Part shown: positions 29,069 through 43,368 of the stretch, piece by piece
Position numbering within the stretch: the first letter of the stretch is position 1
Layout: each line of letters begins with the position of its first letter
Assembly: GCA_016714645.1 (NCBI GenBank)
Contig: JADKCI010000001.1
Location: 35,581 to 99,580, forward strand
Origin: Chromatiaceae bacterium
Lineage (GTDB): Bacteria; Pseudomonadota; Gammaproteobacteria; Chromatiales; Chromatiaceae
DNA: 64,000 nucleotides
Direction of reading: 5' to 3'
Notes under the pieces: generated by a model
Told to the model about the DNA's origin: nothing
Databases searched by the model: none
The model's input: only the letters and a program-made list of their open reading frames with translations
Made by a program: the position numbers and the translations under genes

Positions 29069-29662
29069 ATGCCGGACCCCGTCCCACCCGGACCAGTCGC
29101 CGAGGCGGTCGCACAGGCCATGGCCCCCGTTGTGCCGCCCCAGGTCGTCGAGCACCTTGACAGCCTCGCGGTCAACTACGACCTCCTGGACTTTTTATTC
29201 GGCGGCGCGGGCCTCATGGCCGTCCTTTTCTTTCATGGCCTCTGCATCGCGTTCGTCTACCCCTGGTTCATGCAGCGCAGCCGTGACATGCTGCACCGGC
29301 GGACCTATTGGCGGGTGGAAATGCTGTTTCTTTTCAGCATGTTTTTACTCATGATGACCCACCTGGGCGAAATCACCCTCTGGGCCATCCTCGTCTTCCA
29401 ACTGGGCCTGGTGGACACCCTCCGTGAAGCCATCACCTTCTGCGGCAGTACCTATACCACCGTCGGCTACAACAGCGATCTGATGCCAGAAGGTTGGAAA
29501 GTGATGACCATGATCATCGCCCTGTCCGGCATGTTCTCCTTTGCCTGGACCACGGGCATCATGATGCTGATGCTCAAGCCCTTCCATGCCGCCCAATACG
29601 CCCGCATCACCGGCCGGGACCCGCAAAACGCCCCCTTCTCGGCGGACCAACCCAAGAACTAG
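29069..29662 (+). CDS. potassium-channel-like pore protein (Ion_trans_2 type)
   Basis: 197 aa. Hydrophobic helices flank a pore loop with selectivity-filter sequence TYTTVGYN. Confidence 0.7.
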   Translation: MPDPVPPGPVAEAVAQAMAPVVPPQVVEHLDSLAVNYDLLDFLFGGAGLMAVLFFHGLCIAFVYPWFMQRSRDMLHRRTYWRVEMLFLFSMFLLMMTHLGEITLWAILVFQLGLVDTLREAITFCGSTYTTVGYNSDLMPEGWKVMTMIIALSGMFSFAWTTGIMMLMLKPFHAAQYARITGRDPQNAPFSADQPKN

Positions 29663-29664
29663 CT

Positions 29665-30716
29665 TTCAAGCCCCGTATGATTATATACCGACACGAAGTG
29701 ATCCGTTATTAGGGCAACGACTGACCGGAGACCGGCGAACCATGAATCTGAACCTGCATAAAAATGCGCGGACCACGCCCGCGATTCGCCAGGAACTGCG
29801 CGAATCCACCAAGTCAGAGCGCGAACTGGCCCGCGAGTACCACCTGAATCGCGCCACGGTGCGTAAATGGCGGCAGCGCGAAACCGGCGAAGATGCCTCA
29901 CATCGTCCCCATCGCCTCCATGCGACCCTGACGCCGGCCCAAGAGCGGGTTGTCGTCGCGTTACGCACCACCTTGTTCCTCTCCTTGGATGACTTGCTGG
30001 CGGTGACCCGCGAGTTCCTCAATCCCGCCGTCTCGCGTTCAGGCATGGATCGCTGCCTGCGGCGGCATGGCGTCTCCAATCTCCAAGCCCTGATTCCCCA
30101 GCCGGAAGACGAGGAGCAACCAAAAGAAAACCTTTAAGGATGATGTGCCTGGATTCATTCACGCCGATATCAAGGCTCTTCCGCCCCTGCCAGACGAGAC
30201 CGCGCATCGGTACCTGTGCGTGGCCATTGATCGCGCCTCCCGCTGGATTTACGTGGAAATCTGGGGCGAAAAGACGGCGAACAATGCCGCCGAATTTCTC
30301 CAGCGGCTCGCCGCCACAGCGCCCTTCAAGGTCCAAAAGGTGTTGACCGATAACGACAACGCGTTTACCGATCGCTGTTGCGCCGCCGGCGAACGCGATC
30401 CCACCGGGCGTCATCGCTTTGATCGCACCTGCGATACCCACGGCATCGACCACCGGTTGATCAAGCCCCGTCATCCCCAGGCTAACGGCATGGTCGAACG
30501 CTTCAATGGCCGCATCAGCGAGGTGCTGGCCACCACGCACTACGATGCGGCCGCCACCCTAGAAGAGACCCTGACACGCTATGTGCGATTGTATAATCAC
30601 CAGATCCCGCAGAAAGCGTTAGGACACCTCTCGCCCGCGCAAGCGCTGAGGGGATTGGCAGGAGAAACGCCCAGAATTGTTCAAGAATTAAGGTATAGAA
30701 TCTCACGGTTCTTGAC
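29665..30716 (+). mobile_element. IS481-family insertion sequence, decayed copy 1
   Basis: Collinear with the intact copy at 42320-43368. The ends are (T)TCAAGCCCCGTATGATTATATACC and GGTATAGAATCTCACGGTTCTTGAC (imperfect inverted repeats). It begins 3 nt after the channel gene stop. Confidence 0.8.
29742..30690 (+). pseudogene. IS481-family transposase, inactivated by two single-base insertions
   Basis: Relative to copy 2 there is an extra A in CCAAAAGAAAACC (about 30121-30126), giving a stop at 30135-30137. There is also an extra G in GAGGGGATT near 30650. The track ORF 30145-31227 is a read-through artefact. Confidence 0.8.
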
Positions 30717-31512: not shown

Positions 31513-32973
31513 GTCAACCCAAAGTAGAAATGTCCCCTTCTGTCCAAAATAGAGATGTCCCCTGTTAGCGGCTCGGCTCGGCTAGGGAGGGGGTAGAACC
31601 GGGGGGTACGCCGGCTGGGCGGGCCAGACGGCAGGAGCCCGGAGGGCGACGGGCGTCTGGCCCGCCCAGCCGGCGGCGTGTGGTCGTGCGGGGTCAGGGG
31701 GCGGCGGATGAGGTGGCGGTGCGGGCGGCTGCCCTCGCCACGGCCTGGCGCCACGGGTGATCGAGGGCCGGCTTGGCACGCTGCCGTTGTTGCTTGTCAA
31801 GAGCGCCATCGACCCGCTCGTTGAGGGTCTTCTCGTCCGCGACCGGCGGCGGTTGCTCCCCCTTGCGGTAGGTGGTGTAAGGCCGCTCGCGGCCCTCCCG
31901 AGCAGCACGACCTCCCCCGTCGGCTAGGGCGCAGACAGTCACCTTAGCCCCGCGTAGGCGGTATCCCGGTCCAGGGTGTTGCAGCTGATAGGCGACGTTG
32001 CGGTACTGCGCGGTGAGGTTCTTGGACAGGGTCCGCTCCTCCTGCTCCGAGAGCAGCAGGTCCAGTTCCCGCGGGCGATGCACGAGGGGACGATGGGCGT
32101 CCTCTCCTGAACTGGGGGCTACTGCGAAGCGCCGGTTGAAGTCGGCCATGAACTCCGGCAGGTAGACGTTGGCGCTCTCCAGATCGTTAATGCCGCGCAG
32201 ACGCAACTCCTTGACCAGCCGGTCTTGGAGGGTCTGGTTGGCCCGCTCTACGCGCCCCTTGGCCTGCGGGGTGCGGGCGTGGATCGCTTCGATCTCAAGT
32301 CCGGTGAGGGCGCGTCCGAACTGGGTGGTGGTGGCGCCGTTGGCGGGCTCCACCTGGGTGATGCGGAAGAGGCTATGGCGGTCGGAGTAGAACGCTGCCG
32401 GCCGCCCGTACTGCTCCAGATGCCACCGTAGCACTTGCATGTAGACTGCGGTGGTTTCGCTGGGGGCAAACCACAACTGCACCAGGCGCCCGCTGGCGTC
32501 GTCGATGAAAACGATCAGGGTACAGCGCGGGCCGCGCCCCTCAAACCCGTCGTGGGGTGAGCCGTCGATCTGGATCAGCTCGCCGAAGCGCCCTCGCCGC
32601 TCGCGTAGCTGATGTGCCCGCGCGGCCTTGCGCCGCTTGGGTCGCCACCGCCCCCCGCAGGGCGCGAATCGCCTCGCGTAGCGGCTCCTTGAGCCGTCGG
32701 TTCGACGGCTCCCCGATGCGCCGGGAGACCAGTCCCGCGGCCCCCTGCGCCCGGTAGGCCGCCACCAGACGCTTCACTTGCCGCGTCGTGAGTCCCATTT
32801 GCCGCCCGGCCTCCGCCTGTGTCAGCCGCCGGTCCGTGACCGCCTCGACGACCTTCAGGCGGTGTAGCGCTCGCTTCGTCAACTCGATCATCTCCTCTGG
32901 CATCGCCCCCCCCGTTAACCAAAAGGGGACATTTCTAAACTGCACAAAGGGGACATTACTACTTTGGGCTAAC
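31513..32973 (-). mobile_element. IS1202/ISNCY-like insertion sequence, decayed, with 17-bp flanking direct repeats
   Basis: The terminal inverted repeats are GTCAACCCAAAGTAGAAATGTCCCC (31513-31537) and GGGGACATTACTACTTTGGGCTAAC (32949-32973), with a second subterminal AATGTCCCC box at each end. The flanking direct repeat AATAAGTCTTTAGCACT occurs at 31496-31512 and 32975-32991. Confidence 0.7.
31694..32903 (-). pseudogene. rve-domain (DDE) transposase of the IS1202/ISNCY type, frameshifted and internally deleted
   Basis: The N-terminal HTH part MPEEMIELTKRALHRLKVVEAVTDRRLTQAEAGRQMGLTTRQVKRLVAAYRAQGAAGLVSRRIGEPSNRRL starts from ATG 32903. The frame is lost near the C-run at about 32650. The catalytic part (ELIQIDGSPHDGFEGRG...FYSDRHSLF...TPQAKGRVERANQTLQDRL) lies in another frame down to 31694. 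The linker is much shorter than expected. Confidence 0.75.
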
Positions 32974-33120
32974 AAATAAGTCTTTAGCACTTGCCAGGCC
33001 ATAAGCATTACCAGATCATGGGTCTAAGGTACTGAAGACTTTCTGTGACTGACTTAAGCACCAATGGAAGACTGCGACACGACTTCGGACTTTTCTGCAA
33101 CCCAAAGGCGGATCAAGACC

Positions 33121-35955
33121 ATGCCCAAGCCATTTCACCAAATCACCCTCGACCAGTTCGCCGAGCTGCTCGAAAAATTCCCATTCACTCGCGCCATCGA
33201 GTCCGTGCACATGCACCACACCTGGCGGCCCAATCGCAGTCAGTACCGGGGCCTGTCCACGATCGAGGGCATGTGGACCTTTCATACCCAGACCAACGGT
33301 TGGTCGGATATCGCGCAGCACATTTCCATCGCGCCGGACGGGAGCATCTGGACCGGACGCAATTGGAACCAGCCGCCTGCCAGCGCCTCGGGCTTTAATG
33401 GCAACCGCACCGCCGGGCCGTTTATGTTCGAGATCATCGGGGATTTCGATGTCGGCAAGGATCCCTTCGACGGCCCGCAGAAACACACGGTCCTGTCCGT
33501 CATCGCCCTCGTGCAAAGGCACTTCAAGCTGAAGCCGGACACGCTCCGCTTCCACAACCGCATGTCCAGCAAGACCTGCCCCGGCAGTGGCGTGGATTAC
33601 GAGACGATACTCAAGGAGGTCGCCGAGATCCGCGCCGAGATCGACGCCCAGGCGGCGCCGCGCGCCGCCCCCCGGAACTTCCCGTTCAACGACAGCGCCC
33701 GCGCGATCTTTCGGGTCATCGATACGTTGCGTACCACCGTCGCGACGAACGATGTCGATGCCGAGGGTTGCCTCCACGACTCGACGAGCGAGGCGGCGTT
33801 TTCCCGCAGCACCGTCCCCGCTCCGGCGGGTCATGGCGCGCGGGGTGGCGGCGAGTTGCTCACACCCGAGGCGCTCCACCAGCTACAGCCTCACGTCATC
33901 AATCTGAACCTCGGACGCTTGTCGTCGGAGGGACTCTTCAAGACGCGCGAGGCGGATGTGGACGCGATCTTCGAGGAGCATCTGCCGACGTGGGCGGCGC
34001 AGCGGGGTGGGAAGATTCCGATCGTCTTTTACGCGCACGGCGGGCTGACCTCGGAGGAAAGCGGGCTACTCACCGCGGTCGAGCAGGTCGAGTGGTGGAA
34101 GGCAAACGGCGCCTACCCGATTCACTTCGTTTGGGAGACGGGCTTGCTCGAAACGCTCGGCCAGCTCATCGCGCCCGGGCGCCGACGCGACATCGATTTC
34201 GCCGCGCCCAGTGATTTCCTGATCGAGACGGCCGCCCGCACCCTCGGGGGCGTGAAGATCTGGTCCGGGATGAAGGTCAGCGCCGAGCGGGCGTCGGACG
34301 CAAACGGCGGCGCGCGCTACGCCGCGCGCAAGCTCAAGGCATTCTGTGACGCATACAAAGATCGCGTCGAGCTGCACGCGGTTGGTCATAGCGCAGGCTC
34401 GATCTTTCACGCCTACTTTGTCCCCGCTGCGCTCGATGAGGGCGCCCCGAATTTCCGTAGCTTGCACTTCCTCGCACCGGCCGTCCGGGTCGATACCTTC
34501 GAGCAGCAATTGCTGAAGAGGATCGGCAAAGACAAGGGCGTCGATCACCTCAGCGTCTTCACCATGGCACGCGCCTTCGAAGAGGATGACAACTGCTTCT
34601 CGGTCTACCGCAAGTCGCTCCTCTATCTCATTTACTACGGGCTGGAGCCGGACCGCAAGACCCCGATCCTCGGCCTCGAAGAATCCATCCGCGACAACGC
34701 CAGGCTGAAGCGGCTCTTCGACCTCGACCGCAAGGGCAACGCGGCCGGGGAAGTCATCTGGTCCGTGTCGAAAGACACCACGGGACGCTCGGCGACGACC
34801 TCGCGCACCCACGGCGGCTTCAACAATGACGCGCCGACCATGCAAAGCGTCGCGCAGCGCATCCTGGACAAGGAGGTCACGCCCTTTACGGGTACGGAAG
34901 AGCGCGGGCTCGGCCTGATCGACTCGCTCAGCCATCTCGACCCCGCGCTGGCCGAATACGTTCGGCCGTCCACGACCTCCCCGCAAGCGCCAACGTCCCT
35001 CACGCCGACCGCCGCCCCCTCCGCGGGCGGCGGCGGCCGGCGCGCCCTGTGCGTCGGGATCGATCGCTATCCCACGGCCCCGCTCGAGGGCTGCGCGAAC
35101 GATGCCCGCGCCTGGCGCGAGACCTTCCGCGCGCTCGGCTTCGACACCCCGATCCTCCTTATCGACGAACAGGCCACCCGCAGCGCGATCATGCGCGAAC
35201 TCAGCGACCTGATCCGTTCGAGCCGGGCGGGTGATGTCCTCGCCTTCCAGTTCGCCGGCCACGGCACCCAGCTTCCCGATCTCAACGGCGACGAAGCGGG
35301 GGGCGACTCGCCGGGGCTGGACGAGGCGCTCTGCCCGGTGGACTTCGACCGCGGGCGCTTCGTAATCGACGACGACCTCGCCGCCCTCTTCAACACGATC
35401 CCGGACGGCGTCGGCGTCACCGTCTTCACGGACTGCTGCCACTCCGGGACGATCACGCGGTTCGCCATCGGCACGCCATCGGCCACGACGACTGGCGGCG
35501 CCGTAAAGAAACGCTTCGTCACGGCCACGCCGGAAATGAAGGCGGCGCACGCGGCCTTCCGCGCAACGCTCGACGGCAGCCGGGCCTCGACCTCGCGCGG
35601 GGTCTACGATCAGGCGCGCGAAGTGCTCTTTTGCGCCTGCCGCTCGCAGGAGGTGGCGCTCGAAAGCAACGGTCACGGCCACTTCACCGTACAGGCCACG
35701 CGCGTTCTCGCCACCGGAATCGACGGCCTGACCAATGCCGATTTCCAGACCCGCGTGATCAGCGCCTTTGGGCCGAATCCCAGCCAGAACCCGGAACTCC
35801 ACTGCACCCCCCACTTGCGAGGCCGCTTGCTCCTCGCACCCGTCTCCTCCCCCGCGGGCGGACGCGCCATCGCCAGCCAGCCGGGCAGCCCCGGCGACTC
35901 CCGCGAGGATGTCGCACGCCTCCTCGAAGACACAGCTCGCCTCGTGCGCGGTTAG
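33121..35955 (+). CDS. three-domain cytosolic hydrolase fusion: PGRP/AmpD-type amidase_2 + GxSxG alpha/beta hydrolase + caspase-like (peptidase C14-type) protease
   Basis: ORF 33064-35955; the preferred start is ATG 33121 (MPKPFHQ). The amidase_2 motifs are HMHHTW, NGWSDIAQHISIAPDGSIWTGRNW and FHNRMSSKTCPG. The hydrolase has IPIVFYAHGG and a nucleophile elbow VGHSAGS (Ser codon 34390-34392). The caspase region reads RRALCVGIDRYP...GCANDA, with His in FQFAGHGTQ (35260-35262) and Cys in FTDCCHSGT (35437-35439). There is no signal peptide or TM segment. Confidence 0.85.
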   Translation: MPKPFHQITLDQFAELLEKFPFTRAIESVHMHHTWRPNRSQYRGLSTIEGMWTFHTQTNGWSDIAQHISIAPDGSIWTGRNWNQPPASASGFNGNRTAGPFMFEIIGDFDVGKDPFDGPQKHTVLSVIALVQRHFKLKPDTLRFHNRMSSKTCPGSGVDYETILKEVAEIRAEIDAQAAPRAAPRNFPFNDSARAIFRVIDTLRTTVATNDVDAEGCLHDSTSEAAFSRSTVPAPAGHGARGGGELLTPEALHQLQPHVINLNLGRLSSEGLFKTREADVDAIFEEHLPTWAAQRGGKIPIVFYAHGGLTSEESGLLTAVEQVEWWKANGAYPIHFVWETGLLETLGQLIAPGRRRDIDFAAPSDFLIETAARTLGGVKIWSGMKVSAERASDANGGARYAARKLKAFCDAYKDRVELHAVGHSAGSIFHAYFVPAALDEGAPNFRSLHFLAPAVRVDTFEQQLLKRIGKDKGVDHLSVFTMARAFEEDDNCFSVYRKSLLYLIYYGLEPDRKTPILGLEESIRDNARLKRLFDLDRKGNAAGEVIWSVSKDTTGRSATTSRTHGGFNNDAPTMQSVAQRILDKEVTPFTGTEERGLGLIDSLSHLDPALAEYVRPSTTSPQAPTSLTPTAAPSAGGGGRRALCVGIDRYPTAPLEGCANDARAWRETFRALGFDTPILLIDEQATRSAIMRELSDLIRSSRAGDVLAFQFAGHGTQLPDLNGDEAGGDSPGLDEALCPVDFDRGRFVIDDDLAALFNTIPDGVGVTVFTDCCHSGTITRFAIGTPSATTTGGAVKKRFVTATPEMKAAHAAFRATLDGSRASTSRGVYDQAREVLFCACRSQEVALESNGHGHFTVQATRVLATGIDGLTNADFQTRVISAFGPNPSQNPELHCTPHLRGRLLLAPVSSPAGGRAIASQPGSPGDSREDVARLLEDTARLVRG

Positions 35956-35959
35956 GGCC

Positions 35960-37810
35960 ATGAAAGCGGAGAATCCAGGCGCGGCGGAAGGGCGCGACTT
36001 CACCATCGACGAGGGCGTCCAACGCGCCGCGCAAGGCCGGCCCTACGAGCGCAAGCCGGACGATCCGATGCATCGTCCACTGCGGATCTTCAGCCTGGAC
36101 CCCGCCGTCTCCCAACGGGACGGCGCGGTTGCCGAGGTCAAGGCGCCCTACGAACCGCTCCAGCCTGGACCCATCGGCGCGGTTTTCGCAGTGGACGATG
36201 TGGACGCGGCCCAAGGGACCCACTGGGGTCGTGCCGACCTCGACGACCGCACCGTCCTGCTCCGCAACGGCCACACCCCATCGACGACGAACCCGCTGTT
36301 CCACCAGCAGATGGTCTATGTCGTTTGCGCGACGGTCTACCAAACCTTCCGCAAGGCGCTCGGACGCCATGTGAGTTGGGATTTCGATGCGCGCCCGGGG
36401 GAAGAGGGACAACCGACGCGGTTACGCATCCTGCCGCATGCCTTTGTCGGTCAGAACGCGTTCTACGACCGCACGACCGGGGAACTGCTCTTTGGTTACT
36501 TCTCCGCCACCGACAAACCCCACGGCCGCACTCCGCCGGGCGGCGTCGTCTACACCTGCCTCTCGCACGACATCATTGCGCACGAGGTCACGCATGCCCT
36601 GCTCGACGGTCTGCGGGCGCACTTCTGCCAGCCGACCGGTCCCGACGTCCTCGGCTTCCACGAAGGCTTTGCCGATCTCGTCGCGGTCTTTCAGCATTTC
36701 AGTCACCGCGAGGTGGTGCAAGCGGCCATCCGCCGGTCGGAGGGTCACCTCGAAGACGCGACCCTGCTGACCGGGATCGCTCATCAATTTTCGCAGAGCC
36801 GCGGCTCGATCCAGCCCTTGCGCACGGCTTTCAAGCACATGGCCGATGCAAAGCATGAACCGAAACGATACGATCCGACGCAGGGGGCGCATGAAATCGG
36901 TGAGGTGTTGGTCCAGGCGGTCTTCGAGGCGTGGATGTCGATCTTCAACCGCAAGGTCGAGCGTTATGTCCGCCTCGCAACCGCCGGCGCCGGCCGTCTT
37001 CCTCCGAGCCAGGCGCCGGCCGATCTACGAGACATCTTCGCAGAGGAGGCCAGCAAGCTGGCGGAGCAATTCCTCGGCATCTGCATCCGCGCGATTGACT
37101 ACTGCCCGCCGGTGGACATCGCCCTCGGCGAGTATCTCCGGGCGCTGATCACCGCGGATCACGACCTCGTGCCCGACGACCCGTGGGGTTATCGCGAGGC
37201 GCTCATCGACGCCTTTCGCGTACGCGGCATCTACCCGCCGCAGTTGAGCAGCCTTTCGGAGGAGAGCCTGCGCTGGCAGGCGCCGGCGCTTTCCGTCGCG
37301 AGCATCCCGGAGTTGAGCTTCGCGCGGCTACAGTTTGCAGGCGATCCCGCGGCCCCGGCCAGTCCGGAGGAGTTACTCCGCCAGGCGCGCGCCCTCGGCG
37401 CGGTGGTCGGTCGCCCTGAGCACCTCGCACACTTCGGTCTGGCGCGCAGCAACGACCCCGAGCTCGGGGAAGACACCGTCGACCTGCCGCGGGTGCAATC
37501 GATCCGCAGTTCCCGTCGCGTCGGCCCGGATGGCCAGATCGTCTTCGACCTCGTGGCCGAAGTCACGCAACGCCGCACCGTCCGCGATCCGCGCGGCGCC
37601 TTCGACACCTTCGGCGGCGCAACCGTGATCATCGGCCCCAAGGGCGAATTCCGTTACGTCATCGCGAAAAACGTCCTCAACGAGGATCGGCTCACCAGCC
37701 AGCGGGAATTCATCCACGGCGCGGGAAGGCCGTTTTGCGAGCTGCGAGGGGGCGCGCTAGCGCCGATCAGCAACGCATTTAAGCTTCTCCACGAGCCTAA
37801 AACGCCATGA
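35960..37810 (+). CDS. cytosolic thermolysin-like (gluzincin, HExxH...ExxxD) zinc metalloprotease with an uncharacterised roughly 250-aa C-terminal region
   Basis: ATG 35960 lies 4 nt after the upstream stop and in frame with track ORF 35768-37810. HEVTH is at 36581-36595. The third ligand is in GFHEGFAD (Glu 36662-36664), 23 residues after the second His (20 in thermolysin). There is no signal peptide. Confidence 0.8.
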   Translation: MKAENPGAAEGRDFTIDEGVQRAAQGRPYERKPDDPMHRPLRIFSLDPAVSQRDGAVAEVKAPYEPLQPGPIGAVFAVDDVDAAQGTHWGRADLDDRTVLLRNGHTPSTTNPLFHQQMVYVVCATVYQTFRKALGRHVSWDFDARPGEEGQPTRLRILPHAFVGQNAFYDRTTGELLFGYFSATDKPHGRTPPGGVVYTCLSHDIIAHEVTHALLDGLRAHFCQPTGPDVLGFHEGFADLVAVFQHFSHREVVQAAIRRSEGHLEDATLLTGIAHQFSQSRGSIQPLRTAFKHMADAKHEPKRYDPTQGAHEIGEVLVQAVFEAWMSIFNRKVERYVRLATAGAGRLPPSQAPADLRDIFAEEASKLAEQFLGICIRAIDYCPPVDIALGEYLRALITADHDLVPDDPWGYREALIDAFRVRGIYPPQLSSLSEESLRWQAPALSVASIPELSFARLQFAGDPAAPASPEELLRQARALGAVVGRPEHLAHFGLARSNDPELGEDTVDLPRVQSIRSSRRVGPDGQIVFDLVAEVTQRRTVRDPRGAFDTFGGATVIIGPKGEFRYVIAKNVLNEDRLTSQREFIHGAGRPFCELRGGALAPISNAFKLLHEPKTP

Positions 37811-37923
37811 GCGCCGCCACCGAGCTTATCGTGCCGGCGAGAGAACGCTGGTCTCACACCGGGTTCGCAATCGAGCAGGGCGCAGGTTGGACGAAGCCGC
37901 TACCGCGGCAGATGAGGACTGCC
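37807..37923 (+). pseudogene. 5' remnant of a third operon gene, truncated by the IS91-like end
   Basis: ATG 37807 overlaps the TGA of the protease gene (ATGA). The product reads MSAATELIVPARERWSHTGFAIEQGAGWTKPLPRQMRTA, then runs into the GGGATA repeats and terminal box of IS91-like relic C and stops at 37971. At 54 codons it falls below the ORF-track cutoff. Confidence 0.4.
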
Positions 37924-38775
37924 TATAGGGATAGGGATAGGGATAGGAAGTTCAACCGCACCGGCGGCTGAAGCAGCGCTAACGTAGCATCGCCGGGAGG
38001 GGCGTGGCAAGGCCCGGCAAGCCCCGCGAGGGAGCTGACTGGCAGGAACGGGGGCGAGGTAGCCCTCTCGGAGGGGGCCGAGTGGGCGTGAGGGGTGGTC
38101 TGCCGGCGGCCTGGGTGCAGGCAGCGGCGCGTCGCTGGCCGGTGGCGAGGACGGAAGGAGGCTACCACTGCACTTCCTGGTTGAAGACGTACTCGGGTGA
38201 GGGTTGCGCCAGGGCGTCCCAGTCGGGTACGGCCTCGACCGGTGGGTCGTCCCAGGCCGGCGGTCCGCGGGCCGGGCTGATGCGTGGCGGCTCGGGGGGT
38301 TCGCCGATGTGGTTGAGTATCCGCCGCAGCGGGGCCGCTTCGGTAACGAAGGCGATGATGCGCATGTCGGCACCGCAGTTGGGGCAGGCCAAGGGCAGCG
38401 ACGCGAACAGGCGTGCGAGCAGCATGGCCCACAGGTAGTGCGCCGGGGAGCGGTGACTGGGTGGCGCGGCAGCGGGCGGTGAAGGTGGCGGCGCAGCCGC
38501 CACAGGCGGTGGGTGAGTCAGGTCGGGGTCCGCATCGCGCCCGTAGGCGGTGGCGGCCAGGCGCAGTGGCGCATTGGGTGCGAGCACCCCATGGTAGCGA
38601 TGGCGGTGCAGCCGCGGCGGGGGGATCAGGGCCGCGAGGTGGTCGATGAACTCCAGCGGGATGAGGGACAGCGCGGTGCGCCCGTCGCGCTGGGGCCTCG
38701 GCAGGCGATAGACGATCCGCTCATCGTTGACCTGCTCGAGGCGCTCAAGGGCGAAGGGCGGACGGGCACAGCATG
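37924..38775 (-). mobile_element. IS91-family-like element, 3' half relic (copy C)
   Basis: The terminal box GATAGGAAGTTCAACCGCAC (37942-37961) is preceded by (AGGGAT)3. About 200 nt of tail follows, then the C-terminal half of the transposase. The 5' half is missing. Confidence 0.65.
38162..38770 (-). pseudogene. IS91-family (Y2 HUH) transposase, C-terminal roughly 200 aa only
   Basis: The open frame reads PPFALERLEQVNDERIVYRLPRPQRDGRTALSLIPLEFIDHLAALIPPPRLHRHRYHGVLAPNAPLR...CPNCGADMRIIAFVTEAAPLRRILNHIGEPPEPPRISPARGPPAWDD...PEYVFNQEVQW*. An upstream in-frame stop lies at about 38778. Confidence 0.7.
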
Positions 38776-38975
38776 CTTAGCGAGGGACGTTCCACGCACC
38801 CTTTGTGACCGGGAATCATCAAGCGTTGGTGGTTTCAACATTCGTGGGGGTAGCGCTCGCTGTCGGCGTGGCGCTAGACAGATCGGTCTCGCCGCACTTG
38901 CCGCATCCGACGTCCTGGAAATTTCCGCCATGCCCTGCTAATTTGCACATAACCAGTGTAAGCGGGGCCTGTGAT

Positions 38976-39197
38976 ATGAGTATCACCCTTTCCATCGATG
39001 AGAAGACGCTGTCGGCAGCGCGCAAGGTCGCGGCTGCTCGCGGGCAGAGCCTCAATCAACTGATTCGCGACGAGCTTGCACGGCTGACGGGCGTGGAGCA
39101 CCACCGCGCGGATTGGCAGGAGCTCGAATCGCTGAGCGGGACAGGTCATTCCCGAGGCTGGCACTTCGACCGCGACGAGCTGCATGAAAGAACGTAG
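38976..39197 (+). CDS. vapB: type II antitoxin (VapB-like)
   Basis: 73 aa from ATG 38976 (MSITLSIDEKTLSAARKVAAARGQSLNQLIRDELARLTG). It overlaps the PIN toxin gene by 14 nt. Confidence 0.65.
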   Translation: MSITLSIDEKTLSAARKVAAARGQSLNQLIRDELARLTGVEHHRADWQELESLSGTGHSRGWHFDRDELHERT

Positions 39198-39609
39198 CTT
39201 CCTGGACACCAACGTTCTGGTTTACACCGACGACGCCGACGCACCGGCCAAGCAGGCAACCAGCTTGTCGCTGTTGCGCGCGGGATGGGCAACTGGAAAC
39301 GGCGTGCTGTCCACGCAGGTGTTGCAGGAGTACTTCGCCGCGGTCACCCGCAAGCTGGGCGTCGATGCGGCCGTCGCGCGCCGCAAGGTCGAGCTCTTTG
39401 GCCGCTTGGAGATGCTGAGCATTGGCCACGACGACATCCTGCGCGCCATTGATCTCCACCGCCTGCACGGCTTTTCGATTTGGGATGCCTTGATCGTCAC
39501 CATGGCGCTCAAGGCCCAATGGCGGGTGCTGTATTCCGAAGACATGCAGGACGGACGCGTCATCGACGGTCTGCGAATTGCCAATCCATTCAAGCCCGAG
39601 AGCCGGTAG
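39184..39609 (+). CDS. vapC: PIN-domain toxin VapC
   Basis: 141 aa. The acidic PIN residues appear in FLDTNVLVY, LQEYF, IWDALIV and YSEDMQDG. Confidence 0.85.
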   Translation: MKERSFLDTNVLVYTDDADAPAKQATSLSLLRAGWATGNGVLSTQVLQEYFAAVTRKLGVDAAVARRKVELFGRLEMLSIGHDDILRAIDLHRLHGFSIWDALIVTMALKAQWRVLYSEDMQDGRVIDGLRIANPFKPESR

Positions 39610-39682: not shown

Positions 39683-39969
39683 CCTCTGGGCCATCCTCGT
39701 CTTTCAACTGGACTTGGTGGACACCCTTCGTCAAGCCATCACCTTCTGCGGCAGTACCTATACCACCGTCGGCTACAACAGCGATCTGATGCCCGAAGGC
39801 TGGAAAGTGATGACCATGATCATCGCCCTGTCCGGCATGTTCTCCTTCGCCTGGACCACGGGCATCATGATGATGATGCTCAGGCCCTTCCATGCCGCCC
39901 AATACGCCCGCATCACCGGCCGGGACCCACAAAACGCCCCCTTCTCGGCGGACCAACCCAAGAATTAGC
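39683..39969 (+). pseudogene. 5'-truncated, diverged duplicate of the K+-channel-like gene 3' end
   Basis: Collinear with 29377-29663, including the TTVGY filter and the stop codon. I count about 12 mismatches by eye. Upstream of 39683 the sequence is unrelated to the intact gene. Confidence 0.8.
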
Positions 39970-40047
39970 CACCCGCCCCAGGCCGATCCCAAACACGGCG
40001 GGATAGATGGGTCGGTGGCACTCCTCGCTGGGCTGGAAAAGGGTTAG

Positions 40048-42141
40048 CCTATCTTTGTCACCCCAACCCATAGCATCTTTTACATACAATTGGTTACGAT
40101 GATCATCCGGCGGCGTTGGTCACTACATGTGGGATCGGCGGGGCGTTCGGGTCAATGAGAGTCTTCTCCGTCTTGCCCGGCAGGTGGGGCAGACCGAGGG
40201 CGTTGTAGAGGTCCTGCTGGTGGGGTTCGGGGCGGGTGGCTTTGCGGATGTGGTAGATCTGACCGTCGTCGCGATGGAGGATGACGGTCACCCGCTGTTG
40301 GCCGTCGAGTTGGTTGCGCAGGCTCTCCCAGCTCAGGTGAATGCCCTGAGCCTTGAGTTGCAGACGCACGCTGTGGACCAGGTGGTAGGCCAATACCGAG
40401 AGGAACAGATGGCCGTCGACCCGTGCGCTCTGGTGGTGATAGACCGGGCGCAGGCCCAGCTCCGACTTCAACGAGCGGAACACCGCCTCCAGATCGGTGA
40501 GCATGGTGTAGGTATCCCACAGGGTGCGCTCATCCCAGTCGGCCTGGTTGGTACGCAGGCAATAGACCCCGGGGAGGGTGTCCTCGGTCGGTATGATGCG
40601 CGTCCACACCAGGGCCTTGGCATTGCCGCTGGCTGTGTCTTTCTCCAGGTGGATGTCGTAGAAGCGGATCACCCTGGAGTAACGCTGGCGCAGCCGCCCG
40701 ATGCGGATCTGGACCTGGTCGTAGCCCTTGACGCGACGGGGTATATTGAGCCCCTCGGCCAGGTATTTTAGGTCCGCCTCCAGGCGGTTGGAGAAGCGTT
40801 GTTCGATGCCCCGCTCCTTGGCCTCGCGGCCGGTGGAATGACAGTACAGGCGTACCTCCCCGCTGGCCTCGTCAACCACGCGCTGGGCGCGAATGCGGGT
40901 CGCTCCCGCCTCGCGAATCAGGATCGCCTGCTCGGGATCGAACTCCTGGTGGCGCTCGCGGCTGACGACCAAATAGCGGTAGCCCTGGTCCTTGAGCCAG
41001 GTGAGGTTGGCTGCGGTGGCGATGCCGGCATCGAGCACCACCGTCGGGGCCACCGCAGCGGGGGCGAGCGCCAGGCGCTCGAGCATCTGCTCCAGGGTCT
41101 TGGGCTCGCTGATGTTGCCTGCAAAGACCTTGCTGCGCTTGGGGAAGCCGCTGCCATCGAGCACCAGGGCCAGGGTCGCCAAGGGGCCATCGGAGCGCTG
41201 CTCCTTGGAGTGACCGTGCTTGGCCTTGGCATGGCCGCGCGCCGTGCCCTCGAAGAAGGTATTGGTCAGATCGTACAGGGTGATGGTCTCGGCCAGCGCG
41301 AACAGGTCGCGCTCCTGCTGGTAGAGAAAGCCCTCCAGCGTGGCGCGGTGCGCCAACAACCGGTCGCTCACCCGATACAACTGATTCAGGTCCAGGGCGG
41401 CGAAGTCGTAGTCCAGCAATTCCCCCAGACCGCTGCGCAGTTGCAGCCACTGGTGGGTTGCCAACTCGCTGCCCGGGCGCACCATGCGCCCGATGATGGC
41501 CCCGATGGCGGCGCCCAACTGGTGACGATTGAAGCCCAATTGCGCCAGCTTGACGTCCAACCCCAGCCGCCGCAACGCCTCCAGCGCCACCTGCTCGGCC
41601 CCGACACTGCGCGGGCGAACGACCTCCAGGCGCTCCAGGTCCACCCGCTGATAGTCGCACTGCGCGGCGGCCGCCTTCGCCGCCACCGTCGTGCCCCGGC
41701 GGCTGACCAGGCGGGCCGCACAGTCCCGCGCCAGCGCCTCCCACTGCGGATCCAACCCGTCGGCGATCAGATCCAATTGCCCCTGCACCAGGGCCTCGAT
41801 GCGCCCGGCCAATGGGCCCCACTGCGGGCGCGGCACCTCGAACTGGCGCCCGAGATTGAGCAGCGTGACCTGGCGCACCGACGTCGAAGTGCGCACCGAC
41901 TCTACCAGGCGGTAGGTGTAATAGGGCTCGCCGGTCTCGCGGCTCTTGATGGTGGTGCGACGAATATACATGGGCGCAGCTTAGCCCCTGCGCCGGACCC
42001 TGGCAAGGGTTATTAACAATATTATGGCACTACGCGGCGACGCGAATCGCTAAGCCATTGACCCGGTTTGGGCCACCCGCCTCGCCGCGGCGGAAAGGCG
42101 GGGGTGTTGGGCGGATGAGGGGGGTGGAATGACAAAGATGG
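40048..42141 (-). mobile_element. IS1634-family insertion sequence with target-site duplication
   Basis: The inverted ends are CCTATCTTTGTCACCCC (40048-) and GGGGTGGAATGACAAAGATGG (-42141). The direct repeat GGTTAG abuts both ends (40042-40047 and 42142-42147, within about 1 nt). Confidence 0.8.
40103..41971 (-). CDS. IS1634-family (IS4-superfamily DDE) transposase
   Basis: 622 aa. The N-terminus MYIRRTTIKSRETGEPYYTYRLVESVRTSTSVRQVTLLNLG is characteristic of IS1634-type transposases. The ORF is intact. Confidence 0.9.
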   Translation of the reverse strand: MYIRRTTIKSRETGEPYYTYRLVESVRTSTSVRQVTLLNLGRQFEVPRPQWGPLAGRIEALVQGQLDLIADGLDPQWEALARDCAARLVSRRGTTVAAKAAAAQCDYQRVDLERLEVVRPRSVGAEQVALEALRRLGLDVKLAQLGFNRHQLGAAIGAIIGRMVRPGSELATHQWLQLRSGLGELLDYDFAALDLNQLYRVSDRLLAHRATLEGFLYQQERDLFALAETITLYDLTNTFFEGTARGHAKAKHGHSKEQRSDGPLATLALVLDGSGFPKRSKVFAGNISEPKTLEQMLERLALAPAAVAPTVVLDAGIATAANLTWLKDQGYRYLVVSRERHQEFDPEQAILIREAGATRIRAQRVVDEASGEVRLYCHSTGREAKERGIEQRFSNRLEADLKYLAEGLNIPRRVKGYDQVQIRIGRLRQRYSRVIRFYDIHLEKDTASGNAKALVWTRIIPTEDTLPGVYCLRTNQADWDERTLWDTYTMLTDLEAVFRSLKSELGLRPVYHHQSARVDGHLFLSVLAYHLVHSVRLQLKAQGIHLSWESLRNQLDGQQRVTVILHRDDGQIYHIRKATRPEPHQQDLYNALGLPHLPGKTEKTLIDPNAPPIPHVVTNAAG

Positions 42142-42168
42142 GTTAGGACCAGGGCGGGCCTCACCCCT

Positions 42169-42252
42169 ATCGCGCCAATAGGAATGGCGCGAATCTTGAC
42201 TGATCGCGCCAATAAAGCTAGTTTTTGGCGCGTTAGGCGGTAATCGCGCCAA
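42169..42252. promoter_or_regulatory. operator-like array: five copies of TCGCGCCAA / TTGGCGCGA in alternating orientation
   Basis: Direct copies lie at 42169-78, 42203-12 and 42243-52; inverted copies lie at 42185-92 and 42225-32. They form TCGCGCCA-N7-TGGCGCGA and CGCGCCAA-N12-TTGGCGCG palindromes. The array sits just upstream of GGAG + ATG 42267 of an ORF (MPKKLPEDLTERIETESQ) that is cut by IS481 copy 2. Confidence 0.4.
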
Positions 42253-42319
42253 ACAGCCTTGGAGCCATGCCCAAAAAACTCCCCGAAGACCTAACCGAAC
42301 GAATCGAAACCGAATCGCA

Positions 42320-43368
42320 GTCAAGCCCCGTATGGTTATATACCGACACGAAGTTATCCGTTATTAGGGCAACGACTGACCGGAGACCGGCGAACCATGA
42401 ATCTGAACCTGCATAAAAATGCGCGGACCACGCCCGCGATTCGCCAGGAACTGCGCGAATCCACCAAGTCAGAGCGCGAACTGGCCCGCGAGTACCACCT
42501 GAATCGCGCCACGGTGCGTAAATGGCGGCAGCGCGAAACCGGCGAAGATGCCTCACATCGTCCCCATCACCTGCATGCGACCCTGACGCCGGCCCAAGAG
42601 CGGGTTGTCGTCGAGTTACGCACCACCTTGTTCCTCTCCTTGGATGACTTGCTGGCGGTGACCCGCGAGTTCCTCAATCCCGCCGTCTCGCGTTCAGGCA
42701 TGGATCGCTGCCTGCGGCGGCATGGCGTCTCCAATCTCCAAGCCCTGATTCCCCAGCCGGAAGACGAGGAGCAACCAAAGAAAACCTTTAAGGATGATGT
42801 GCCTGGATTCATTCACGCCGATATCAAGGCTCTTCCGCCCCTGCCAGACGAGACCGCGCATCGGTACCTGTGCGTGGCCATTGATCGCGCCTCCCGCTGG
42901 ATTTACGTGGAAATCTGGGGCGAAAAGACGGCGAACAATGCCGCCGAATTTCTCCAGCGGCTCGCCGCCACAGCGCCCTTCAAGGTCCAAAAGGTGTTGA
43001 CCGATAACGACAACGCGTTTACCGATCGCTGTTGCGCCGCCGGCGAACGCGATCCCACCGGGCGTCATCGCTTTGATCGCACCTGCGATACCCACGGCAT
43101 CGACCACCGGTTGATCAAGCCCCGTCATCCCCAGGCTAACGGCATGGTCGAACGCTTCAATGGCCGCATCAGCGAGGTGCTGGCGACCACGCACTTCGAT
43201 GCGGCCGCCAACCTGGAAGAGGCCCTGACCCGCTATGTGCGATTTTATAATTATCAGATCCAGCAGAAAGCGTTAGGACACCTCTCGCCAGTGCAAGCGC
43301 TGAAGGATTGGCAAGAGAAACGCCCAGAATTATTCAAGAAATAAGGTATAGAATCTCACGGGGTTGAC
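42320..43368 (+). mobile_element. IS481-family insertion sequence, intact copy 2
   Basis: The inverted ends are GTCAAGCCCCGTATGGTTATATACC and GGTATAGAATCTCACGGGGTTGAC. It contains a single intact transposase ORF. I found no flanking direct repeat. Confidence 0.85.
42397..43344 (+). CDS. IS481-family DDE transposase
   Basis: 315 aa. The product reads MNLNLHKNARTTPAIRQELRESTKSERELAREYHLNRATVRKWRQRE..., with an rve core (HADIKAL...VAIDRASRW...TDNDNAFT...PRHPQANGMVERFNG). Confidence 0.9.
   Translation: MNLNLHKNARTTPAIRQELRESTKSERELAREYHLNRATVRKWRQRETGEDASHRPHHLHATLTPAQERVVVELRTTLFLSLDDLLAVTREFLNPAVSRSGMDRCLRRHGVSNLQALIPQPEDEEQPKKTFKDDVPGFIHADIKALPPLPDETAHRYLCVAIDRASRWIYVEIWGEKTANNAAEFLQRLAATAPFKVQKVLTDNDNAFTDRCCAAGERDPTGRHRFDRTCDTHGIDHRLIKPRHPQANGMVERFNGRISEVLATTHFDAAANLEEALTRYVRFYNYQIQQKALGHLSPVQALKDWQEKRPELFKK

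Follow-up and report, generated by a model that had tools for sequence, protein, structure and literature searches.

A two-gene cassette in an IS-bracketed segment of a Chromatiaceae genome couples a three-domain hydrolase to a thermolysin-fold zincin and is a candidate proteolytic suicide module

The 64,000-nt stretch of Chromatiaceae DNA analysed here (the window) carries an intact, unnamed and widely distributed two-gene cassette, followed by what remains of an optional lectin gene (Table 1). We read the cassette as self-contained and horizontally mobile. Our tentative prediction, held with slightly less than even confidence, is that it specifies a cytosolic suicide module, of conflict or abortive-infection type, that works through a proteolytic cascade, a kind of module that has no name in the resources searched.

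Table 1. Features of the cassette and its surroundings, in window coordinates.
Feature	Position	Strand	Basis or remark
IS481-like element, copy 1	29377..30708	+	left edge of composite arrangement
rve-type IS (HTH and integrase-core ORFs)	31694..33008	-	Pfam; adjoins 5' side of gene 1
Sigma-70-like promoter match	32991..33019	+	consensus match only; at IS junction, ~100 nt upstream of gene 1
Gene 1: 944-aa predicted-cytosolic protein (amidase, serine-hydrolase-like domain and metacaspase, disordered linkers between)	33121..35955	+	ORF closed by stop codon
Amidase_2/PGRP domain, residues 24-155	33190..33585	+	Pfam E 2.8e-8, exceeding cut-off
Serine-hydrolase (alpha/beta-hydrolase-like) domain, residues 245-595	33853..34905	+	motifs and predicted topology
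Metacaspase/orthocaspase domain, residues 640-910	35038..35850	+	Pfam Peptidase_C14, residues 640-895, E 1.6e-24
Gene 2: 616-aa predicted-cytosolic thermolysin-fold gluzincin	35960..37810	+	
Third ORF: 5' stub of PA-IL/LecA-like lectin gene	37807..37971	+	homology; ATGA overlap with gene 2 stop
vapBC-like pair (DUF6364 antitoxin-like gene and PIN toxin)	38970..39609	+	in same IS-bracketed segment
IS481-like element, copy 2, direct orientation, interrupted	39683..43361 (39683-39969 plus 42321-43361)	+	

The three same-strand ORFs form a tight array (33121-37971), and the coordinates and junctions given in a preliminary description of this DNA were exact: the stop codon of gene 1 (35953-35955) is followed after 4 nt by the ATG of gene 2 at 35960, and an ATGA at 37807-37810 leads into the third ORF. 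For gene 1 the start at 33121 is preferred over an upstream ATG at 33064, because homologues begin MPKPF and the latter codon is unconserved in L004, a relative that is 89% identical. The intact third gene of L004 encodes 132 amino acids, and the homology of the window to it ends near 37889-37908, so that homology covers no more than the first 27-34 codons and the gene is truncated, as had been supposed. The lectin gene is sporadic, occurring in few relatives, some of which fuse lectin to zincin; it is an accessory and not a core component of the cassette.

The segment had been described as bounded by insertion sequences, and the boundaries can now be drawn more sharply, for a single IS481-like element is present as two direct copies that enclose gene 1 and gene 2, the second of them interrupted by a 2351-bp insertion (39970-42320) with a DDE_Tnp_1 transposase gene. 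The nearby vapBC-like pair was likewise recovered, and the putative IS91-like relic gave no Pfam match. Only one sigma-70-like promoter match was found within 32700-38300, that at the IS junction, and upstream homology to relatives starts only ~65-80 nt before the gene 1 ATG. The native upstream region has thus been shortened to this length by the IS, and expression of the window copy is therefore uncertain. PADLOC 2.0 identified no named system at the locus, in keeping with the earlier remark that no signature gene of a named anti-phage system was seen, its sole match being to the generic 'caspase' model (2.8e-19).

The AF2 model of the gene 1 product has three folded regions (residues 1-178, 245-595 and 640-910) and two disordered ones (180-243 and 596-637), and the disordered linkers hold short conserved motifs. 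The N-terminal amidase matches PGRPs and T7 lysozyme in the PDB and is of the catalytic type (His-His-Cys), with conserved Zn ligands H32, H145 and C153 and a conserved Lys151; Gln66 occupies the position of the catalytic Tyr. It belongs to the 'SDIAQH' subfamily, common to Bacillus plasmid peptidoglycan hydrolases that adjoin SLT and M23 enzymes. At the C-terminus lies the metacaspase, with a His714/Cys773 dyad (DCCHSG) and an invariant Arg798 beside a disordered p20-p10 loop; it matches PDB metacaspases at 1.7e-20, with Foldseek matches to 9n3e, 6w8s and 3bij, and from its metacaspase-type motifs we infer a specificity for Arg or Lys. The central domain has no sequence match in Pfam or the PDB. 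Its invariant HGG (306-308), GHSAG (422-426, with Ser424) and His564, together with a predicted strand-elbow-helix topology, make an alpha/beta-hydrolase-like assignment plausible, and its homologues are found fused to C1 papain-like peptidases. Of the four hydrolytic chemistries proposed in the preliminary description, three are therefore firm, profile and structure searches having recovered Amidase_2, Peptidase_C14 and the thermolysin fold, but the serine hydrolase is recognised by motif and topology only.

The fourth enzyme, encoded by gene 2, contains an HEVTH motif at residues 208-212 (nt 36581-36595), followed by the third ligand, Glu235, and by Asp239, and this signature (HExxH...HExxxD) is invariant among relatives. 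The AF2 model (pLDDT 87.6), which includes an extra C-terminal beta domain at ~511-602, matches a single PDB fold significantly, that of thermolysin (E 3.7e-6, target-normalised TM 0.57), at a sequence identity of ~15%. On this model, gene 2 encodes a thermolysin-fold zinc protease with its catalytic residues intact. The family to which it belongs has no Pfam model and comprises ~4,900 clusters at 50% identity, some of whose members NCBI names 'peptidase M4'. No catalytic motif of either gene varies in 54 sequences that reach down to ~50% identity. Both long proteins lack signal peptides and TM helices (top KD(19) hydropathy 1.31), which supports the earlier view that both products are cytosolic.

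Gene 1 and gene 2 form a real unit, co-inherited and co-evolving. Their homologues adjoin each other, with a gap of 4-10 nt or an overlap, amid unrelated flanks. The co-occurrence on which the preliminary description had staked its proposal was found: among metagenome loci with enough DNA downstream, the zincin follows the gene 1 homologue in 50 of 59, and zincins at least ~50% identical to that of the window have an ABH-caspase protein upstream in nearly all genome loci with upstream DNA. Distance matrices of the zincin and the caspase domain correlate with a rho of 0.69, a value reached by none of 500 permutations; the benchmark for two domains of one polypeptide was 0.59, and the coupling of zincin to caspase is thus as tight as that of domains within a single chain. 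The distribution is patchy and crosses phyla, the window zincin being 67-69% identical to those of Chthoniobacterales or Chromatiales MAGs.

The N-terminal position of gene 1 varies among zincin-paired relatives, being occupied by an active amidase, a degenerate amidase without Zn ligands (L007 and L056), a second lipase-like hydrolase or an unrelated 744-aa region, or being absent altogether. An exchangeable effector fits this variability and an obligatory sensor does not. The preliminary description had favoured a sensor, in which the cytosolic PGRP-type domain binds muropeptides or peptidoglycan precursors and so controls the lipase and metacaspase, much as PGRPs signal to caspases in animals. 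The PGRP homology is genuine, the protein is predicted to be cytosolic, and retention of a degenerate domain in some lineages is expected for a non-catalytic role. However, the main family keeps its Zn ligands and catalytic Lys without exception, the subfamily motif is that of the plasmid peptidoglycan hydrolases, and the domain is swapped or missing despite zincin pairing, so that sensing of this kind now appears quite unlikely.

Zincins of this family serve as the constant partner, or hub, of differing cytosolic hydrolases. Partners in other lineages include an MBL-fold protein, either by itself or together with a fused S8 protease, a patatin gene or an ABC-type ATPase, and astacin-like or M43-like proteases. 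At distant loci an MBL gene lies immediately downstream of the zincin (30 of 32), and the N-terminus of this partner matches the PADLOC MBL effectors LmuA, RTasMBL and Avs1a. Rhizobial plasmids carry patatin-zincin-MBL operons flanked by CBASS, Hachiman, DarTG or a Septu-like pair; one island reads CBASS, patatin-zincin-MBL, ATPase+HNH, and another reads DarT/macro, CBASS, patatin-zincin-MBL, DUF1837+helicase (Hachiman). An ATPase-zincin-MBL operon at another locus is flanked by an integrase, and distant zincin modules also occur on conjugative plasmids. The zincins of these defence islands are only ~40% identical to that of the window, and the pair of the window type shows no defence-island signal: the 82 neighbouring genes from 22 genomes are a mixed set, largely of housekeeping type, in which PADLOC matches are few, and flanking genes in complete genomes are ordinary. 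For window-type pairs, then, the defence context comes from distant zincins only. The death or defence reading first offered remains plausible on these terms, and the neighbourhood survey that had been called for upheld the pairing but neither a recurrent lectin gene nor a defence setting for window-type pairs.

The same neighbourhoods bear on two other readings. One, which we regard as somewhat unlikely, is a regulated autolysis or envelope-stress programme using the same enzymes and proteolytic activation for developmental lysis, fratricide, release of biofilm matrix or eDNA, or a response to wall damage. It would account for window-type pairs amid ordinary chromosomal genes and for a Desulfopila variant whose linked domains, CHASE2 and PASTA, are envelope sensors, and Amidase_2-metacaspase fusions have been linked to autolysis and programmed cell death in earlier literature (PMC3501461). 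The patchy cross-phylum distribution at high identity, the IS-bracketed window copy, and the association of distant modules with defence islands and conjugative plasmids argue against it, and no developmental regulators recur near window-type pairs. The other, highly improbable, is a secreted multi-effector or polymorphic toxin with clan-CD autoprocessing, as in MARTX toxins, and a co-secreted zincin. Several destructive enzymes on one chain with flexible linkers, and amidase and lipase activities suited to attacking other bacteria, speak for such a toxin, which the preliminary description had raised as its alternative. Nevertheless, a signal peptide or TM helix, an N-terminal trafficking domain and a small immunity gene are lacking, the C-terminal architecture is conserved, not polymorphic, and no secretion-system family recurs among the 82 neighbours of the 22 loci (best 25 of 100 families). 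Partner metzincins also lack an evident signal peptide: no N-terminal hydrophobic stretch was seen by eye in the astacin-like and M43-like partners, the protein start in L033 being a deduced one.

In the suicide module that we tentatively favour, the zincin would be a trigger-responsive initiator protease that cuts the gene 1 product in its disordered linkers, in the p20-p10 loop near Arg798, or in both; alternatively, it might release metacaspase autoprocessing at that loop. The freed amidase would then attack peptidoglycan or its precursors, the lipase/esterase membrane lipids and the metacaspase proteins, with cell death as the outcome. The modelled architecture of gene 1, with its disordered linkers, conserved short motifs and Arg798 by the loop, suggests a protein ready for processing. 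No sensor or NTPase is evident in the two-gene cassette; candidate triggers are a phage component or envelope damage, and the lectin, where present, may contribute ligand sensing. In Desulfopila-type loci the three-domain protein is preceded by genes for CHAT-CHASE2, FecR-PASTA and a small caspase and has no zincin, and the CHAT/caspase proteases in its place are probably interchangeable initiators.

The direction of the cascade fits three ways: the zincin cuts the gene 1 product, the reverse, or the zincin is a negative regulator. The last corresponds to an antitoxin- or guard-type zincin that continuously degrades or clips a toxic gene 1 product, so that inhibition or titration of the zincin, by a phage protein for instance, would kill the cell. 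Strict 1:1 pairing, translational coupling across the 4-nt gap, co-evolution and the absence of a separate sensor gene are consistent with a guard. It is nonetheless very unlikely, as the protease of the nearest experimental analogue activates rather than restrains its effector (10.1101/2025.09.03.673762), and replacement of the zincin by sensor-linked CHAT/caspase proteases in some lineages better fits initiators.

That analogue is the trypsin-MBL module of Hachiman, AVAST, short Argonaute and other systems, in which protease cleavage activates an autoinhibited MBL DNase (10.1101/2025.09.03.673762). Both arrangements couple a protease gene to a cytosolic hydrolase effector, their protease-effector co-evolution is similar (Spearman 0.68 there, 0.69 here), and the MBL partners of distant zincins match the same PADLOC models. 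Activation by proteolysis was shown for the trypsin-MBL modules and is a prediction for the cassette, whose protease is a thermolysin-fold zincin unfused to a known sensor and whose partner in the window is the three-domain protein, not an MBL protein. The multi-peptidase conflict systems of Kaur et al. 2020 (VMAP ternary, GAP1, NucA-trypsin and EACC1-caspase) resemble it in combining caspases with alpha/beta-hydrolases and several coupled effectors whose proteolytic release was proposed (PMC7159879). The cassette differs in having no MoxR, vWA, VMAP, GTPase, EAD or EACC1 component (NCBIfam caspase_w_EACC1 scores 32.9 bits against a cut-off of 140), in fusing hydrolase to caspase, and in a constant zincin partner that a term search of that paper did not find described (PMC7159879). 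Four Amidase_2-metacaspase proteins, from Polaromonas, Nitrosococcus, Chitinophaga and Desulfobacterium, appear in Asplund-Samuelsson et al. 2012, with a comment on joint lipase, amidase and protease activity (PMC3501461), and these probably belong to the gene 1 family; that paper gives a Pfam domain list and no mechanism, and its passages found by term search name neither the central hydrolase nor the zincin nor the operon (PMC3501461). Type IV Thoeris, bacterial gasdermin systems and Craspase likewise use a clan-CD His-Cys protease as a plausible executor of cell death, but the operon has other domain partners and no TIR, gasdermin or CRISPR component. Gene 2 has the gluzincin signature of thermolysin and MEROPS M4, HExxH with a downstream Glu (ExxxD), and no Pfam match to M4, to FTP/PepSY-type domains or to an N-terminal domain; unlike those enzymes, it lacks a signal peptide, is only ~15% identical, has extra N- and C-terminal regions, and is cytosolic and operon-coupled to effectors. 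Finally, the gene 1 amidase shares its fold and His-His-Cys Zn site with PGRPs, T7 lysozyme and AmpD, the spacing of its catalytic Lys (H-x5-K-x-C) with T7 lysozyme and its cytosolic location with AmpD, and is set apart from all three by the Gln at the catalytic-Tyr position, a subfamily trait also seen in the Bacillus plasmid enzymes, and by its fusion to two further hydrolases.

The cassette consists of two long genes and a short third one, all on the same strand (see the table), and the close packing reported for them in the preliminary description, including the ATGA overlap into the third gene, was reproduced to the nucleotide. For the first gene, ORF1, the start codon at 33121 is favoured, because the homologues all begin MPKPF and an in-frame upstream ATG is not kept in the closest relative. 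By Kyte-Doolittle hydropathy, neither ORF1 nor ORF2 has a hydrophobic N-terminus or a segment of transmembrane grade, the highest 19-residue mean being 1.31, in agreement with the earlier view that both long proteins lack signal peptides and transmembrane helices. It is very improbable that the cassette encodes a secreted toxin: a search for polymorphic or MARTX-like traits found no N-terminal trafficking domain or signal and no immunity gene, and no secretion linkage appeared in the best 25 of 100 neighbour families.

Coordinates of the cassette, its surroundings in the window, and selected loci from other replicons
Feature	Locus	Position	Strand	Remarks
IS481-like copy 1	window	29377-30708		
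ORF1	window	33121-35955	+	944 aa
ORF2 (zincin)	window	35960-37810	+	616 aa; begins four bases after ORF1
Third ORF	window	37807-37971	+	54 codons; ATGA overlap with end of ORF2
vapBC-like pair	window	38970-39609		DUF6364-type antitoxin-like ORF overlapping PIN-domain toxin ORF; inside bracketed segment
IS481-like copy 2	window	39683-39969 and 42321-43361		direct repeat of copy 1
Insertion in IS481-like copy 2	window	39970-42320		2,351 bp; DDE_Tnp_1 transposase
Patatin/zincin/MBL operon, Rhizobium plasmid	L192	6825-11540		beside CBASS/Septu-like genes
Patatin/zincin/MBL operon, Rhizobium plasmid	L194	7818-12455		beside DarTG and CBASS/Hachiman genes
C1-peptidase fusion with ORF1-type hydrolase	L196	5966-8020		
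C1-peptidase fusion with ORF1-type hydrolase	L197	6035-7972		
Desulfopila-type locus without zincin	L199	4550-12823		upstream protease set differs, linked to envelope-sensor domains
Desulfopila-type locus without zincin	L097			as for L199

The AlphaFold2 model of ORF1 (54 homologues; mean pLDDT 78) contains three folded blocks (residues 1-178, 245-595 and 640-910) in which the connecting residues, 180-243 and 596-637, are disordered linkers, as is the p20-p10 loop (775-793) disordered; a C-terminal helix is present. Linker sequence matched nothing in Pfam, NCBIfam or PADLOC, even at E<=10. The N-terminal block carries an Amidase_2 match in Pfam (PF01510; residues 24-155, E 2.8e-8, 34.6 bits against a cut-off of 26), and its sequence matches in the PDB are insect PGRPs and T7 lysozyme. 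Across 54 sequences, down to ~50% identity, H32, H145 and C153 never vary, and K151 is retained in at least 90%; given the T7-lysozyme spacing, we take the first three to be zinc ligands and K151 to be the catalytic lysine, with the register set by alignment to PGRP-LB and T7 lysozyme and by known residue numbering. In the alignment, the position of the catalytic tyrosine (T7 Tyr46, PGRP-LB Tyr78) is occupied by Gln66, within the motif GWSDIAQH. The SDIAQH variant is also found in a stand-alone 'peptidoglycan recognition family protein' of a Bacillus plasmid and, within an SLT-domain cell-wall hydrolase encoded beside an M23 peptidase, in the amidase domain; because these apparent peptidoglycan hydrolases share it, Gln66 is better seen as a subfamily trait than as a sign of decay.

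Among ORF1-like proteins the N-terminal module is mostly an active-type amidase, with degenerate versions lacking the zinc ligands in Opitutaceae (L007) and Kaistia (L056). Elsewhere it is exchanged for a second hydrolase that matches a putative lipase (PDB 7x2p, 6.5e-4; L132, L136 and L168) or for an unrelated 744-aa region (L150), or it is missing (L018 and L041). In a Desulfopila lineage the three-domain protein occurs without the zincin, its gene preceded by those for Pepco, CHAT-CHASE2, FecR-PASTA and a small caspase. Two side observations concern neighbouring genes: a GDSL-lipase-like gene lies ~500 nt upstream of the pair in Nitrospira sp. Nam80 (L198, 8326-9495), and in a Chlorobiota MAG (L016, 8857-9858) a gene for a prokaryotic YEATS (pYEATS) protein directly follows the zincin gene with a start-stop overlap. 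In the passages of a 2012 survey that deal with such fusions, a GDSL lipase joined to an Amidase_2-metacaspase protein of Chitinophaga was noted (PMC3501461). The preliminary description had proposed that cytosolic muropeptide sensing by the PGRP-type domain is coupled to protease and lipase effectors, a proposal we consider improbable. An extended form, which seems to us just as hard to credit, would have this domain, active or degenerate, sense peptidoglycan fragments or precursors in the cytosol and license a zincin-to-metacaspase cascade. Bacteria would then have their own version of the PGRP-to-caspase signalling of animals, and the danger signal would be a disturbed cell-wall metabolism, such as phage lysis enzymes might cause.

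The C-terminal block is readily placed. Residues 640-895 match Peptidase_C14 (Pfam, E 1.6e-24), metacaspases such as TbMCA2 (1.7e-20) are its sequence matches in the PDB, and Foldseek with the ORF1 model returned Arabidopsis metacaspases 9 and 4 and Geobacter GSU0716 at probability 1.0. The His-Cys dyad is present, with G713-H714-G715, D771-C772-C773-H774-S775-G776 (DCCHSG), D734, A736 and C738 invariant in 54 sequences, and the metacaspase-type D-E-A-L-C-P-x-D motif beginning at D734 is invariant or nearly so in homologues down to ~50% identity. Cleavage after Arg or Lys is presumably its specificity, as in the family generally. The middle domain matched nothing in Pfam, NCBIfam or PADLOC, even at E<=10, and had no PDB profile match, and the Foldseek list for the whole ORF1 model was occupied by caspase-fold entries only. 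On motifs and topology it is predicted to be an alpha/beta hydrolase: H306-G-G, G422-H-S424-A-G426 and H564 are invariant or nearly so down to ~50% identity, and in the model the GHSAG elbow (422-426) lies between a strand (416-423) and a helix (426-439), HGG follows a strand (299-305), and beta and alpha elements alternate. On replicons of Sinorhizobium, Rhizobium, Eleftheria and Ideonella, homologues of this domain, at 30-33% identity, occur as fusions with papain-like 'C1 family peptidases', so that the serine-hydrolase family goes with cysteine proteases of two different folds.

ORF2 had no sequence match in Pfam, NCBIfam, PADLOC or the PDB, its N- and C-terminal regions matching nothing even at E<=10, and PDB sequence and profile searches with the zincin family returned nothing meaningful. 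Its AlphaFold2 model (pLDDT 87.6, pTM 0.91) matched, at E<0.001 in a Foldseek search of the PDB, thermolysin entries only (E 3.7e-6, probability 1.0, TM 0.57 normalised to thermolysin), and H208-E209-x-x-H212 and H234-E235-x-x-x-D239, where E235 is the third-ligand Glu, are invariant in 54 sequences. Because the fold and invariant motifs come without a Pfam match, ORF2 is best classed as a thermolysin-fold gluzincin (clan MA(E), M4-like) outside M4 as Pfam defines it; unlike M4 proper in MEROPS and Pfam, it lacks a Peptidase_M4 or M4_C match, a signal peptide and a prodomain-type Pfam match. A gasdermin-like role was rejected in view of the thermolysin fold. Of the four hydrolytic chemistries originally proposed for the cassette, the amidase and the caspase dyad thus stand on Pfam and PDB matches and the zincin on its invariant motif and fold, while the alpha/beta hydrolase is recognised by motif and topology, with no sequence match behind it. 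The zincin family is large, with at least 7,300 clusters at 90% identity; a full HMMER scan gave 4,867 clusters at 50% identity with E<=1e-3, and 1,483 with E<=1e-30.

Whether the two long genes form a unit was addressed with a zincin-profile scan of one genome per species, the ORFs of which were then searched with domain HMMs. The nearest named relatives were MAGs of Thiocapsa (76%) and Chromatiales (69%). Essentially all zincins of ~50% identity or more with upstream DNA are preceded by a hydrolase-caspase protein, usually with the amidase present, in otherwise unrelated flanks. In the reverse direction, searching metagenomes with an ORF1 profile found the zincin downstream in 50 of the 59 loci with room for it, directly abutting in 48. 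The homologues thus co-occur, a point that the preliminary description had set as a test. Distance matrices of the zincin and the caspase domain are correlated (Spearman 0.69, 71 loci; none of 500 permutations reached 0.69), as tightly as two domains of ORF1 itself (0.59). The two genes are a co-inherited unit with four conserved hydrolase active sites, cytosolic, and with flexible linkers in the effector chain.

The third gene belongs less closely to this unit. In L004, an 89%-identical relative, a 132-aa gene comes after the zincin gene and overlaps it in ATGA just as here; the window's third ORF resembles that gene over the first 27-34 codons only, and loss of homology beyond that point bears out the suspicion that the third gene is truncated here. 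A short (GGGATA)n tandem (~37925-37950) lies just beyond the loss of homology and is perhaps where an inserted or rearranged element ends. The third-gene family is small (26 clusters); Pfam PA-IL (LecA-like lectin, PF07828) is matched by 7 of 20 members (best E 3.9e-6), the profile finds the PllA lectin in the PDB (5odu, 1.6e-4), and intact relatives have a C-terminal ND...Y.NN.G lectin motif in a region missing from the window's stub. Judged from sequence, the intact proteins are probably PA-IL/LecA-like lectins with putative sugar binding. Chthoniobacterales-type proteins of 786 aa carry the lectin domain on the zincin itself, as a C-terminal fusion (52% identity, E 4e-40). Such PA-IL-like fusions were seen in zincins of 756-786 aa (L011, 2180-4540; P0019, P0021 and P0024), the separate overlapping gene being the arrangement of the window lineage. 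No lectin gene follows the pair in L001, L005, L007 or L198. Since it is absent from most relatives and fused to the zincin in some, the lectin gene is best regarded as a functionally linked accessory, and a core role was rejected.

The insertion-sequence setting outlined in the preliminary description is likewise real. Two direct IS481-like copies (96-98% identity) bracket an 8,974-bp segment in the manner of a composite transposon, which holds an rve-type IS, the cassette with its lectin stub, a PIN/vapBC-like pair and a possible IS91 relic, the last not confirmed by Pfam. Homology to relatives begins only ~65-80 nt upstream of ORF1, and the only sequence resembling a promoter is at the IS junction, so expression of the cassette in this genome is uncertain.

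More distant zincins (~40% identity over the whole length) have other partners. Directly downstream in 30 of 32 loci is a metallo-beta-lactamase-fold (MBL) protein of ~430-570 aa, the N-terminus of which matches the PADLOC MBL effectors LmuA, RTasMBL and Avs1a; zincin and MBL together form this group's invariant core. An N-terminal Peptidase_S8 domain is fused to many zincins, a patatin or small caspase gene lies upstream of others, and a further group is paired with astacin-like or M43-like metzincins with no evident signal peptide. At an Armatimonadota locus (L063), genes for zincin, MBL and an amidase-hydrolase-caspase protein stand in a row; no MBL gene was found in the window or in relatives carrying its gene pair. 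On Rhizobium rhizogenes pColt5.8d, a patatin-zincin-MBL operon has a CBASS cyclase/SAVED operon on one side and a Septu-like AAA-ATPase and HNH pair on the other; on R. leguminosarum pRle248a its neighbours are DarT/macro (DarTG) plus CBASS and, on the opposite side, DUF1837 plus helicase (Hachiman). In their own right these operons appear to make up a candidate defence system without a name. Hymenobacter has an ATPase-zincin-MBL operon flanked by recombinases, and 36 of the 59 plasmids with a match are conjugative. An R. etli plasmid (L191, 3847-12373) bears an S8-zincin fusion and MBL operon preceded by a 'cell wall hydrolase' gene, with an MBL/MoxR set nearby on the opposite strand. The zincin is thus the constant member of modules whose cytosolic hydrolases are exchanged, and some of these modules reside inside defence islands. 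That the window's zincin acts as a guard of ORF1 seems improbable.

Loci with the window's own pair showed no defence enrichment: by Pfam and PADLOC, the 82 neighbours at 22 loci were a mixed set, largely of housekeeping genes, and few matched PADLOC. Three of these matches were of LmuA/MBL type, though not of the zincin-associated kind. Viral sequences gave only partial zincin relatives in IMG/VR (24-33% identity) and, in the GenBank phage collection, one short unannotated contig (40% identity) and one weak match; as these matches are few, partial or weak, the cassette is not evidently phage-borne. A non-immune role in autolysis or stress, with the same mechanics, is a rather unlikely alternative. 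An autolysis device would still give context to the Amidase_2-metacaspase fusions that the relevant passages of the 2012 survey (PMC3501461) list and leave unexplained.

The reading we tentatively prefer, by analogy and parsimony and at somewhat less than even confidence, is protease-triggered cell suicide, with the zincin as a trigger-responsive initiator. The zincin would process ORF1 in its linkers and/or near the invariant R798, or unleash autoprocessing of the metacaspase, and the amidase, lipase/esterase and metacaspase would then kill the cell. The initiator role is suggested by the invariant zincin-MBL core and by two precedents: in trypsin-MBL modules the protease was shown experimentally to cleave and activate an autoinhibited MBL DNase (10.1101/2025.09.03.673762), and Kaur et al. 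(2020; PMC7159879), where they treat conflict-system caspases, report accompanying alpha/beta-hydrolases and propose proteolytic effector release. If protease-triggered suicide is right, a thermolysin-fold family without a Pfam model (~4,900 clusters at 50% identity) would be an unrecognised initiator hub of cell-death and immune modules, and the effectors armed by it would number four kinds or more: patatin lipases, MBL nuclease-like proteins, further proteases, and the metacaspase/lipase/amidase protein. In the window's form, two genes would make up a compact system, without an NTPase or nucleotide signal, in which a metacaspase is combined with enzymes directed at peptidoglycan and lipids. 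This would make it a tractable model for the activation and execution targets of bacterial caspase homologues.

In PADLOC-DB 2.0, ORF1 matched the generic caspase model only and ORF2 and ORF3 nothing, consistent with the initial impression that no signature gene of a named anti-phage system is present; PADLOC 2.0 has no model for the zincin family, its pairing with ORF1 or the zincin-MBL operons, and literature searches on defence operons combining caspases with zincins, thermolysins or metalloproteases turned up no description of any of the three. The EACC1-caspase system was rejected, ORF1 scoring 32.9 bits against a cut-off of 140 for NCBIfam caspase_w_EACC1; that system has a 5' EACC1 single-TM gene, whereas an IS lies upstream in the window and relatives have no conserved upstream gene. 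Type IV Thoeris was ruled out, there being no TIR gene. Unlike trypsin-MBL modules, the window and its same-pair relatives have no protease-adjacent MBL-fold nuclease, such as stands at 30 of the 32 distant zincin loci. As far as sequence comparison indicates, the ORF1-zincin pair is no new category and belongs to a known kind, the protease-armed cell-death and defence modules.
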